This document shows positions 16,221 through 18,958 of a stretch of DNA of 64,000 bases, piece after piece. The position numbers and the translations under genes are program-made. Every line of letters begins with the position of its first letter. Within the stretch, counting starts at the first letter, position 1. The DNA comes from an uncultured Mycoplasma sp. (lineage in GTDB: Bacteria; Bacillota_I; Bacilli_A; RF39; UBA660): NCBI GenBank assembly GCA_902493595.1, contig CABUPU010000004.1, positions 9,958-73,957 of the forward strand. The letters run 5' to 3'. Under the pieces are notes generated by a model. That model saw only the letters and a program-made list of their open reading frames with translations. It was not told where the DNA came from and ran no database searches.

Positions 16221-16326
16221 CAAAGTACGCATTTTTTGAAATATAATTTTGCCTAACTTATGCTAAAAAATCACTATTTTTTAGTGAAAACTGTCAAACA
16301 AAAAAATCTCTTTCGAGATTTTAATT
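16221..16326. repeat. ~106-bp direct repeat copy 1 (contains a terminator hairpin); begins at the dpnB stop codon
   Basis: Near-identical (~4 mismatches/indels) to 18852-18958. On the minus strand it contains AAATCTC-gaaa-GAGATTT followed by a U-run. Confidence 0.7.
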
Positions 16327-17190
16327 TAACACTTGTTTTAAAGTGCCATTTTCCAAATCATTAATGTTATACATTGTTTCAAGTTCATTAAATGTTTCTT
16401 TAAGATTATTCTTTGCATCATGCCAACCTAAGCCATCAGTAATCCATATAAACGTTATTCCATCAATTTCCTTTACTTTTTTTGCTAGCATTTCATAACT
16501 TCTTGCAATTTCATTTAATTTAGAACCACTACTTGCATAAAAATTTGTTTCAATTAAATATATTTGTTTAGGAGTTTTTATAACAAAATCAAATCTTTTT
16601 GTGGAAACATTATTTCCAGATAAAGAACTTAAATCAATATTCCATCTTTTCTCAATATCATTTAAGTACATTTCTTTAAAGTAATTTACATCTTTAACAA
16701 AACCAGATTCCTTAATATATTTTTCTACTAAATCTTCCATTAAATGACCACCACGATTTTTTCTACCATTAGAATCAAGACCAACTTCAATTCCTAAAAC
16801 ATAATCATATAAATTATTTATAATATGATTTTGTAATAAATCAAATAGACCACTTTCTTGCATAAACCTAACATAGTCATCCATTGAATAAACCATTTTT
16901 TTAAAGTCAAATAAATATTCATTAATTTCATCCTTAACAAATATTTCAGTAGAACGAACCGCTAAAAGAAGTGGTATACATTCTAAAGTTTCAGGATATT
17001 TAAGCATTATGTTTTTAAAAGCTTCTTCAATTGTTTTACTACCAATTAATGAATTTAAAATATTAAGTTCTACTTTTACTTTATCAACATTTTTATATAT
17101 TTTTTTAAAATCAGCATAATAACTATAATTAGATATACTAGACTTAAAGTTTTTAATCCATTCATTAAAATCTCTTTTCATTTTCATCAC
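16321..17190 (-). CDS. dpnB: type II restriction endonuclease, DpnII/MboI family (GATC), DpnB-like
   Basis: 289 aa. Its position and size match the third gene of the S. pneumoniae DpnII cassette (dpnM-dpnA-dpnB). It overlaps dpnA by 26 nt, as in pneumococcus. Confidence 0.7.
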   Translation of the reverse strand: MMKMKRDFNEWIKNFKSSISNYSYYADFKKIYKNVDKVKVELNILNSLIGSKTIEEAFKNIMLKYPETLECIPLLLAVRSTEIFVKDEINEYLFDFKKMVYSMDDYVRFMQESGLFDLLQNHIINNLYDYVLGIEVGLDSNGRKNRGGHLMEDLVEKYIKESGFVKDVNYFKEMYLNDIEKRWNIDLSSLSGNNVSTKRFDFVIKTPKQIYLIETNFYASSGSKLNEIARSYEMLAKKVKEIDGITFIWITDGLGWHDAKNNLKETFNELETMYNINDLENGTLKQVLN

Positions 17191-17938
17191 TTTCCTTTCT
17201 TTTAATTGTTAAATCTAAATATTCTTTTTCTTTTTCAATACCGATATACCTTCTTTTTAATTTGCTGGCAACAATACCAGTTGTGCCACTTCCATTAAAA
17301 GGATCTAATATTAAATCATTTTCATTAGTTGAAGCAAGTATAATTTTTTCTAATAATTCTATTGGTTTTTGAGTGGGATGTTTTCCACACTTTTTTTCAC
17401 TTGGTTTGGTAAGTGAGGTTTCCCAAACATCTTTCATTTGTTTATTATTATTAAGTTTTTTCATAATGTCATAATTAAATTTATATTTAACATTCTTTAT
17501 GTCCTTTTTGGCCCATAAAATAGTTTCTGTCGAATGAACAAAACATTTACAACTTATGTTTGGTGGTGGATTTAATTTTTTCCAAGTAATATTATTAATT
17601 ATTTTAAATCCATTTTCCTCAAGGGCCATACCTATAGAATAAATGTTATGCATAGTTCCACTTATCCAAATTGTTCCATCATCTTTTAAAACATCTTTGC
17701 ATAATTTTATCCATTTTTTGTTAAAATTGTGTTTTTCTTTTAAAGTAATAGATTTATCCCAATCGCCTTTATTAACACTAACTATTTTTCCACCACTACA
17801 TGTAATACCATTACTAGATAAAAAATATGGGGGATCAGCAAATATTACATCAATACTTTTAGGTTCTATATTTTTAAGTATTTTTAAAGAATCACCTTTA
17901 TATAATGTAAAATTATCTTTTTCATAGTATGGTTTCAC
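17165..17938 (-). CDS. dpnA: N6-adenine DNA methyltransferase DpnA-like (ssDNA-active GATC methylase, beta class)
   Basis: 'IFADPPYFLSSNG...GGKIVSVNKGDWDK...WISGTMHNIYSIGMALEENGFKIINNITWKK...GKHPTQKP...ILDPFNGSGTTG' is very close to DpnA as I recall it. Confidence 0.85.
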   Translation of the reverse strand: MKPYYEKDNFTLYKGDSLKILKNIEPKSIDVIFADPPYFLSSNGITCSGGKIVSVNKGDWDKSITLKEKHNFNKKWIKLCKDVLKDDGTIWISGTMHNIYSIGMALEENGFKIINNITWKKLNPPPNISCKCFVHSTETILWAKKDIKNVKYKFNYDIMKKLNNNKQMKDVWETSLTKPSEKKCGKHPTQKPIELLEKIILASTNENDLILDPFNGSGTTGIVASKLKRRYIGIEKEKEYLDLTIKRKESDENEKRF

Positions 17939-17947
17939 TTGGCCTCC

Positions 17948-18778
17948 TTAATAATTTGTAATAATAACTTCCTCTACTTTACCTCTTTTATTTCCATTTG
18001 CGTTAATACTTCTTTTAGCATCGATTACATGTATATTAAAACCTATATATAATTCATTTATTAAAGAAGTATTATGATTTGATAACATTACTTTTACACC
18101 TTTATTATCTAACTTTTTAAATACACTTGCAAGTCTTTTTTGTTCCTCTTTATCAAAACCAGTATCTGTATAACTATTAAATGTATGTGTATCTGAATCA
18201 TATGGAGGATCAATATATACAAAATCTCCTTCTTTAGCACTTTCTAAAGAAGTTTCAAAATCCTCACATAAAACTTTAATATCATTCATACTAAGATAAT
18301 TACTTACAGTTATTAAATTATTTCCATCATAAGTATTAACTTTATCTTTTTTTCCAAAAGGAACATTAAATTCATTTTTGCTATTAACTCTATAAAGTCC
18401 ATTAAAACACGCTTTATTTAAATAAATAGTTCTTGCAGCTCTAGTATAGTCAGATAATCTATTAAATGTTTTTTTATTTCTATCTTTATTTCTCATTTCA
18501 TAATAAAATTCTTCATTATGTTTAGCTTCAAAACTATTTAATGAGGCACATAACTTTTTAAACTTATCTTCATCTTTCAAACAACTATAAACATTCATAA
18601 GTTCTTTATTAGAATCATTTATAACAGCTTTTTTTGGTGATAATTCAAAAAGAAGTGCTCCTCCCCCTACAAAAGGTTCATAATATGTATCAAAACTTTC
18701 TGGAACATATTTTTTTAGTTCATTAATTATTTGTCTTTTTCCACCAGCCCATTTTACAAATGGTTTTCCTTTAATCAT
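17948..18778 (-). CDS. dpnM: Dam-family N6-adenine DNA methyltransferase DpnM-like (GATC)
   Basis: 'FVKWAGGKRQII', 'FVGGGALLFEL' and 'YIDPPYDSD' (D12 class). Confidence 0.85.
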   Translation of the reverse strand: MIKGKPFVKWAGGKRQIINELKKYVPESFDTYYEPFVGGGALLFELSPKKAVINDSNKELMNVYSCLKDEDKFKKLCASLNSFEAKHNEEFYYEMRNKDRNKKTFNRLSDYTRAARTIYLNKACFNGLYRVNSKNEFNVPFGKKDKVNTYDGNNLITVSNYLSMNDIKVLCEDFETSLESAKEGDFVYIDPPYDSDTHTFNSYTDTGFDKEEQKRLASVFKKLDNKGVKVMLSNHNTSLINELYIGFNIHVIDAKRSINANGNKRGKVEEVIITNY

Positions 18779-18851
18779 AATTTCATCCTTTTCCTACTTA
18801 TTTAGTATAACATGAATAAGAAATTTCTTAAATAAAAAATAGAAAAATTTG

Positions 18852-18958
18852 CAAAGTACGCATTTTTTGAAATATAATTTTTGCCTAACTTATGCTGAAA
18901 AAACACTATTTTTTAGTGCAAACTGTCAAACAAAAAAATCTCTTTCGAGATTTTAATT
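18852..18958. repeat. ~106-bp direct repeat copy 2; begins at the stop codon of the Cys/His-rich gene
   Basis: See 16221-16326; it contains the same terminator hairpin. Confidence 0.7.

Follow-up and report, generated by a model that had tools for sequence, protein, structure and literature searches.

A DpnII-family restriction-modification cassette between two copies of a host gene's 3′ flank in an uncultured human-gut Bacilli lineage

Results

A DpnII-family operon at a strain-variable site

In a 64-kb stretch of DNA from an uncultured human-gut Bacilli lineage, hereafter referred to as the window, we analyzed a 2.5-kb strain-variable insert that occupies the first slot of a defence island. 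The insert carries three genes resembling dpnM, dpnA and dpnB of Streptococcus pneumoniae and lies between two near-identical direct repeats, designated R. One of these, R_A, is the native 3′ intergenic segment of a conserved Cys/His-rich gene of 83 codons (here called cot; 18957..19208), and the other, R_B, follows dpnB. The cassette genes, cot and both repeats are all on the minus strand and are described in gene orientation. Directly after R_A comes a leader that is specific to the cassette (18779..18848), in which a promoter scan placed the dpnM promoter (TTAAGA-16 nt-TGT-TATACT, 18804-18831) and which also contains a ribosome-binding site. The similarity to cassette-free loci ends at the end of R_A, before this leader.

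The first gene of the cassette (17948..18778) encodes a DpnM-like protein of 276 amino acids with the motifs FVGGGA and DPPY, which was assigned to the Dam-family (D12 class) N6-adenine DNA methyltransferases (Pfam MethyltransfD12, 2.6e-64; NCBIfam dam TIGR00571, 293.5 bits with a cut-off of 114.85). Its best match in the PDB is the pneumococcal DpnM structure 2DPM (E 1.8e-75), with 120 of 269 residues identical (45%). The second gene (17165..17938), which has a GTG start 5 nt after AAGGAGG, encodes a further methyltransferase of 257 amino acids (Pfam N6_N4_Mtase, 1.1e-63; PADLOC MTase_II, 6e-103). Its motif order is that of the beta class, DPPY preceding FNGSGTT, and its likeness to DpnA is one of size and of position between the methylase and endonuclease genes, not of comparison with a DpnA sequence. 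The third gene (16321..17187/17190) encodes a type II restriction endonuclease of 288-289 amino acids that matches the Pfam DpnII family (PF04556, 1.2e-108) over profile positions 1-277 of 278, as well as PADLOC REase_II (2.9e-102). This DpnB-like protein is 64% identical to a Fusobacterium homologue, 56% identical to staphylococcal plasmid homologues (tblastn, plasmids) and about 33% identical to lactococcal homologues. No endonuclease coding sequence has been lost at the repeat, since the protein ends where its homologues end. The three genes are arranged on a single strand in the order M-A-B, with a gap of 9 nt between the methylase genes and an overlap of 23-26 nt between dpnA and dpnB, and one staphylococcal plasmid homologue is annotated with the identical order of Dam, second methylase and endonuclease and with the same overlap.

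Judged by sequence, the three genes constitute a complete type II restriction-modification (RM) operon of the DpnII family with its own promoter. This is the operon type that the original prediction had named from its gene order and motifs, and low similarity to the DpnII proteins, which would have spoken against that prediction, was not observed; the similarity is high. The encoded enzymes are predicted to methylate GATC and to cut unmethylated GATC. Within the window, 68 GATC sites were found where a second-order Markov model predicts 126.5 (observed/expected 0.54), which makes GATC the most depleted of the well-sampled 4-bp palindromes and is consistent with long exposure to GATC restriction. 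Other 4-bp palindromes that are under-represented in the window are GCGC (0.51, with 4 sites only), CCGG (0.64) and CATG (0.67), and GGCC is over-represented (1.47).

In a search of 5.8 billion proteins with the endonuclease, the best 120 matches were all variants from the same lineage with 96-99% identity, and neither an outside donor nor outside flanks were among them. The cassette has been resident in the lineage for a long time, because it is as diverse (96-99%) as the backbone. A match of 453 amino acids (P0001), considered as a possible fusion at this locus, proved to be an unrelated DpnII gene that resembles those of Fusobacterium and is duplicated internally. In composition the cassette does not stand out from the window, which has a G+C content of about 25% throughout. 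Terminal inverted repeats that pair the ends of the insert were not found in the repeat scan of the window, no transposase or integrase open reading frame (ORF) was detected in or beside the insert in the ORF table or with Pfam, and the tRNA scan found no tRNA gene within 10 kb of the cassette.

The flanking repeats

The two R copies in the window (16221-16326 and 18852-18958) comprise 106 and 107 nt, respectively, and are 96% identical, differing by 3 mismatches and 1 indel (MAFFT, BLAST); the repeat scan of the window recovered the pair with a gapless match of 95 nt. The near-identical direct repeats of about 106 bp that had been noticed in the original prediction are thereby confirmed. Faint similarity continues for about 3 nt beyond the core, up to 16218 and 18849, which brings R to about 109 bp in all (R_B, 16218..16326; R_A, 18849..18958). 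The 38 nt closest to the stop codons are identical in both copies, and this 38-mer had two matches in the window compared to none in 100 shuffles. The spacing between the copies is 2,632 nt and the unique part of the insert measures about 2.5 kb. The shared sequence opens with AATTAAAATCTC, also written AATTAAAATCTCGAAAGAGATTTTTTTG, and its distal end reads ...GCGTACTTTGYAA; R_A ends in ...GCGTACTTTGCAA. Beyond the repeats the sequences differ, with the cassette leader and its promoter after R_A and an X2 promoter (TTGAAT-17-TATACT) after R_B.

The repeats had also been predicted to begin exactly at stop codons. The stop codons of cot and dpnB do adjoin the start of R, but they are different triplets, since the border splits the cot stop (T|AA), of which two of the three bases form the first two bases of R, whereas the last codon and the stop codon of dpnB (AAT TAA) both lie within R. 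Both copies contain the same terminator-like hairpin, as predicted, which consists of AAAATCTC-GAAA-GAGATTTT followed by further T residues to give a run of seven, and which is present in the RNA folds (18935-18954 in R_A and 16303-16322 in R_B). Its 8-bp A/U-rich stem with a GAAA loop was not called by a generic terminator scan because it has only two G-C pairs. A second hairpin in R (CACTA-AAAAA-TAGTG) was rejected as a conserved structure, as non-pairing sequence replaces it in many alleles. Likewise, promoter-like sequences inside R on either strand occur at the background rate (31 found and 27.6 expected) and are not conserved between alleles. No match to Rfam was obtained for positions 14000-20000 of the window (E<=1), which indicates that R is not a known RNA family.

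R is confined to a single locus. An nhmmer search with a profile of 39 distinct R sequences recovered just the two copies in the window, even at E<=10, and no R elsewhere in the 20-kb loci. In three species representatives of GTDB, two of them titled 'uncultured Bacilli bacterium' and one 'Mycoplasma sp. CAG:472', the R core is found at this locus only, twice in each. It was also found in 29 metagenome stretches, and viral contigs gave 0 matches. Every R copy that we found sits at this one locus, so that R is not the dispersed multi-copy repeat family whose discovery would have contradicted the original prediction.

Alleles at the locus

For comparison we examined about 55 related loci from human-gut metagenomes and from three species represented by metagenome-assembled genomes (MAGs); all are metagenome assemblies or MAGs. 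Five architectures could be distinguished. In architecture A, cot and a single R are followed directly by a NUDIX or other gene; its ten loci (L001, L002, L005, L008, L014, L019, L024, L031, L034 and L040) are long contigs. Architecture B has the order cot-R-X1-R-X2-methyltransferase-NUDIX with a spacing of 654 nt between the R copies, and is found at many loci, including the species representatives L011 and L013. Architecture C, cot-R-DpnII-R-X2 with a spacing of 2632-2633 nt, is that of the window and of L006, L012, L043-L049, L052 and L053. A single locus (L035, architecture D) has three R copies in the order cot-R-DpnII-R-X1-R-X2, and another (L018, architecture E) has the order cot-R-X2, which is the exact empty site. 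The R-DpnII-R structure occurs in at least 15 assemblies other than that of the window, made with different assemblers, and the two R copies differ from each other in a strain-specific manner; over 7,035 nt, one independent contig from ENA (L053) matches the window with 100% identity.

These alleles show that R is host flank. It runs from the region of the cot stop codon through the terminator-like hairpin and the spacer as far as the next promoter, and it is present as a single copy in cassette-free strains. The related strains with one 106-bp segment after the 83-codon gene, which the original prediction had proposed to look for, do exist (architecture A and L018), and its statement that the cassette carries a copy of the 3′ flank of the host gene holds.

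X1, a gene of 132 codons that is unrelated to DpnII, is also bracketed by R. X1 and X2 are paralogues, each located after R and the same promoter, and the R-promoter-X1 segment has about 81% DNA identity to the R-promoter-X2 segment. In L003 the two genes are located at 10442-10840 and 11096-11497, and the pair is also present in L004, L007, L009-L011, L013 and others. Ahead of the next R, the 3′ sequence of X1 is unique over about 85 nt, which a simple tandem duplication of R, promoter and X leaves unexplained. The idea that R abuts a stop codon at X1 as well was rejected, because the X1 stop lies 68 nt upstream of the hairpin; such abutment is seen only at cot and dpnB.

Three loci have irregular structures. 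In a strain of the B type (L039), an IS3-like element with an ORF of 92 amino acids (HTH_Tnp_1) and one of 263 amino acids (rve) is inserted inside the cot-side R at about 230-1515. L032, a low-coverage contig of 3.5 kb, has a dpnB-side R that breaks off after about 84 nt and continues into the terminator of a convergent gyrA, with gyrB-gyrA upstream (3012-3126); the contig is chimeric or else comes from a strain in which the DpnII cassette makes up the whole island. In L052 (1-1450), a class I aminoacyl-tRNA synthetase replaces pgsA upstream of the 83-codon gene, and similarity to the window begins about 90 nt upstream of that gene, which reflects either a rearrangement or a misassembly.

Junctions and mosaic structure of the repeat copies

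The R copies carry signatures that distinguish their origins. In all ten distinct dpnB-side copies the junction is AATT|hairpin and a T is found 5′ of TTGA, as in the cot-side copies, whereas the X1-side copies show the junction TTTG|hairpin and carry C or A as the corresponding base. On the basis of the AATT junction and the diagnostic T, the dpnB-side R derives from the cot-proximal flank and not from the copy after X1. In L035, the dpnB-side R with its promoter matches the cot-side copy of L011, a genome without DpnII, with 100% identity over 135 nt; this is the expected result if cot-R-DpnII was placed before an L011-type array. In L016, L017, L026 and L037, the dpnB-side R is 99.3% identical to post-X1 copies, which is the pattern that a deletion of X1 by exchange between two R copies would leave. 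The identity between R_A and R_B ranges from 82 to 95% among the DpnII strains, and the pair in the window is the most similar. The patterns of identity show the R copies as mosaics of one another across strains, attributable to homologous recombination within R.

Neighbouring genes and the defence island

On its conserved side, the locus consists of PBP1A and RecU genes (divergent), a GpsB-like gene, a RodZ-like gene and pgsA, followed by the 83-codon gene, which is always found beside these genes. The exact 83-amino-acid protein is indexed in 4377 blocks of a metagenome assembly collection, and the places that were inspected are all human-gut metagenome contigs. The original prediction had described this gene as CotD-like, for which the support is weak: the match to Pfam Spore-coat_CotD (E 0.003) reaches 18.5 bits and is below the cut-off of 22.

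Beyond the cassette, directly after R_B, lies the X2 promoter-like site (TTGAAT-17 nt-TATACT, 16189..16217, minus strand), and the same sequence follows R in cassette-free strains of the X type. X2 itself (132-133 amino acids; 15739..16137, minus strand; 399 nt) marks the downstream edge of the insertion site. It is broken by a change of TGG to TGA at codon 44 (16006-16008) and is a pseudogene in this strain; the nonsense codon is also present in L053, and X2 is intact in L006, L043-L049 and L052. No match to Pfam, NCBIfam or PADLOC was found for X2. Its 3′ end overlaps the start of a gene for a SAM methyltransferase of the small-molecule type, which suggests that the two genes form an operon. 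Next come a NUDIX gene, a HigB-like and HTH/M78 gene pair (12431-13850) and a type I RM system (hsdR, 8574-11357; hsdM, 7085-8560; hsdS, 5637-7082), and the island of the window also encodes a protein of 886 amino acids without a family match. The NUDIX gene (14601-14996, minus strand), which is similar to MutT/pyrimidine dNTP pyrophosphatases and matches the candidate defence family PDC-S07 of PADLOC (4.6e-47), is kept in nearly all island variants. Between this gene and a DUF7695 gene, at 14231-14343, there are two direct repeats of 50 nt that are 63 nt apart and 88% identical, each holding an internal inverted repeat, CATTGAGAA...TTCTCAATG.

The islands of other strains contain type I RM systems, GmrSD, Z1/AIPR, a reverse transcriptase (RVT_1) gene, AAA_21/RloB, Dam-HNH, Fic, SieB, CoiA and integrases. 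The site is a hypervariable defence-island hotspot, since the defence genes downstream differ greatly between strains; the island corresponds to positions 1-16200 in the window and to 10400-20252 in L001-L010. A second DpnII-type system with about 78% DNA identity is present several kb deeper in the island in L005 (15337-18929) and also in L029 and L031, all of which are strains without the R-flanked cassette. This system has an extra HTH_3 gene, possibly for a controller protein, and a gene for a protein of 183 amino acids between the methylase genes.

Discussion

How the cassette may have entered and spread

A mode of entry that leaves a long direct repeat, termed 'insertion with long target duplication', has been described for RM systems (Nobusato et al. 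2000, Gene 259:99; Furuta, Abe & Kobayashi 2010, NAR 38:2428; PMC2853133). Such insertions are defined by the presence of R and M genes inside an insert of less than 20 kb, flanking repeats of more than 30 bp, a related genome with the empty site, and the lack of any other mobile element, and their repeats often span a stop site so that the target gene is left intact (PMC2853133). The present cassette agrees with this definition on every point: it holds two M genes and one R gene in an insert of less than 20 kb; its direct repeats are 106-109 bp long and 96% identical; related genomes have a single R at the empty site (ten long contigs, and L018 for cot-R-X2); and no other mobile element, tRNA or att-type repeat accompanies the insert, with R found only at this locus in the window and in the three MAG species genomes.

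We therefore regard it as probable that a DpnII-family RM operon entered this locus by long target duplication and was later exchanged homologously through R. By this route, the entering cassette would have duplicated the 3′ flank of cot, so that neither cot nor dpnB would lack a terminator and the downstream promoter would be undisturbed. Portable homology would now be provided by the R pair, and recombination between its two copies would delete the cassette precisely. An incoming cot-R-DpnII-R fragment could recombine into any strain with cot-R, whatever the downstream island, and since every strain has cot-R, the second R would supply the cassette with homology on its right-hand side that does not depend on the variable island. 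Such entry would probably take place by natural transformation, which the putative activity of the DpnA-like methylase would favour; this methylase and the CoiA homologues encoded in some island variants would agree with such a route. The original prediction had ascribed the insertion or replacement of the cassette to homologous recombination. This part of it stands for events within the repeat, to which the mosaic R copies testify, but not for the first duplication: homologous recombination accounts for the spread and the loss of the cassette, not for how the repeat was first duplicated.

Several points weigh against this overall explanation. The present alleles do not allow the first insertion to be reconstructed, and long target duplication itself has no established mechanism. 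An R array may have existed beforehand, given that X1 is bracketed by R as well. The sole exact empty site, L018, is a low-coverage contig of 2.2 kb, and a de Bruijn assembler that skips a repeat-bounded loop could yield such a contig. The genome-wide uniqueness of R rests on incomplete genomes (metagenome assemblies and MAGs) and on an exact-core pattern. Lastly, the pneumococcal competence box before dpnA (the ComX cin box, TACGAATA) is absent here, unlike in S. pneumoniae; it does not occur in the cassette at all, and its three occurrences elsewhere in the window are at chance level. As the box is specific to streptococci, this absence says nothing on function.

Alternative explanations

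The array of R copies around X1 could mean that an R-promoter-X array like that of cot-R-X1-R-X2 existed beforehand, and that DpnII replaced an X unit by illegitimate recombination without any target duplication. Many strains indeed carry R on both sides of X1 at the 654-nt spacing, and the paralogy of X1 and X2, with about 81% identity of the R-promoter-X segments, indicates that R-containing units do duplicate at this locus. However, the dpnB-side R shows the cot-side junction with its diagnostic T, and not the X1-side junction, in all ten distinct copies. On its left, the cassette begins exactly where R stops, ahead of the −35 of the X promoter, and no remnant of X promoter or coding sequence is left on the dpnM side. 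L035, which has DpnII together with X1 and X2, would need an ancestor with three units, and none was observed. Disfavoured in this way by the junction signatures and by architecture D, substitution into an R-X-R array is a possible but rather unlikely origin. The serial arrangement of R might alternatively mean that R is an attachment site, similar to an integron attC or a phage att, at which a recombinase encoded elsewhere inserts and excises circular cassettes. DpnII and X1 are unrelated, have the same orientation and are each flanked by R; in one contig three R copies follow one another; and several island variants have tyrosine-integrase genes at their far end. Nevertheless, there is no recombinase within the cassette, beside it or on the conserved side, no further R at the far end of the island or elsewhere and no tRNA nearby. 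R lacks the long imperfect palindrome of attC and has two short local hairpins, only the first of which is conserved, and the mosaics imply crossovers at varied positions in R. Logan contigs about 2.64 kb long have both ends within R and a terminal overlap of 13 nt, a pattern expected of a 2.63-kb circle and also of a repeat-bounded loop. For one of these (L056) the reading as a circle was considered and set aside: its overlap inside R is equally explained by a repeat-bounded de Bruijn loop, and it was not counted as evidence. Since a dpnB-R-dpnM junction was seen in no locus either, we consider site-specific exchange very improbable.

Similarly slight is the chance that R is the recombination site of a small chromosomal cassette array, whose units, R+DpnII (a circle of about 2.63 kb) or R+X1, would be excised, amplified or re-inserted beside the conserved gene through a host function, with no linked integrase. 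If true, it would provide evidence from nature for release and re-invasion, two steps of the 'virus-like life cycle' of repeat-flanked RM systems, which has been hypothesised by Kobayashi's group and never observed. An origin of the duplication in metagenome misassembly, or in chance similarity of AT-rich sequences, can practically be dismissed. The genome has only about 25% G+C and repeat-bounded loops do fragment assemblies, as the 2.6-kb contigs illustrate, but the R 38-mer was absent from all 100 shuffles and the same structure is found in more than 15 independent assemblies from different assemblers, with strain-specific differences between the copies. Long target duplication followed by homologous exchange through R is thus the explanation that we retain.

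Comparison with known systems

As in the known long-target-duplication insertions, the R and M genes form a unit of a few kb without a transposase or integrase, the direct repeats are far longer than the target duplications of transposons, and the repeat is single-copy at the empty site, otherwise unique and spans the stop site of a gene, so that the target gene is intact. The published cases are mostly from proteobacteria, whereas the host here is an uncultured gut Bacilli lineage with about 25% G+C. Beyond what those cases contain, the present locus has a second R-bounded insert (X1), a three-repeat array, mosaic repeats and a location in a defence-island hotspot.

The dpnMAB operon of S. 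pneumoniae has been described (PMC3812788), as has the pneumococcal DpnI/DpnII 'intercellular cassette mechanism' (Lacks et al. 1986, Cell 46:993; Johnston et al. 2013; PMC3812788, PMC3573125). The cassette shares with pneumococcal DpnII its composition and order, comprising a Dam-like methylase that is 45% identical to DpnM, an N6_N4-type methylase and a DpnII-family endonuclease. Like the pneumococcal cassettes, it is present or absent at one site within shared homology and is thus exchangeable by homologous recombination. Its endonuclease is nevertheless nearer to the Fusobacterium (64%) and Staphylococcus (56%) homologues than to the lactococcal ones (about 33%). The alternative DpnI/DpnII cassettes of pneumococcus, which the original prediction had invoked as a parallel, turned out not to be the closest one. 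Across the approximately 55 loci, the slot is either vacant or occupied by DpnII, by X1 or by the two together; no methyl-dependent alternative of the DpnI type was seen there, and the gene tables contain no match to a DpnI-family Pfam entry. To our knowledge, a duplicated flank segment of 106-109 bp is not part of the description of the pneumococcal cassette. The closest known counterpart is insertion with long target duplication (PMC2853133).

With defence-island hotspots, the locus has in common that a strain-specific set of defence genes lies downstream of one conserved gene. Unlike plain hotspot cargo, the DpnII unit is bounded by an internal duplication of the left border of the hotspot and not by its outer borders. 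The locus also recalls integron cassettes in that promoter-proximal units of the same orientation are each followed by a recurring element of about 100 bp, with up to three of these elements in series, but it differs from them in having no integrase, no attC-like imperfect palindrome, only two types of cassette and variable breakpoints in R. In contrast to RM systems borne by transposons or insertion sequences, there are no terminal inverted repeats, no short target duplication and no transposase here.

Significance

The cassette represents no new enzyme, defence principle or class of mobile element; it is a new example of a known mode of RM insertion and of the DpnII family. It adds a Gram-positive example from an uncultured gut bacterium to the small set of long-target-duplication RM insertions, the mechanism of which has been open since 2000. 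The example has unusual population depth, with one-, two- and three-R alleles as well as mosaic ones and a flanking gene that is present in thousands of metagenome blocks. As a consequence of this depth, later steps are visible in natural data, namely the deletion of units by recombination between repeats and the transplant of the cassette into strains with other islands. This indicates that a duplicated border can render a defence cassette portable within a hypervariable hotspot.

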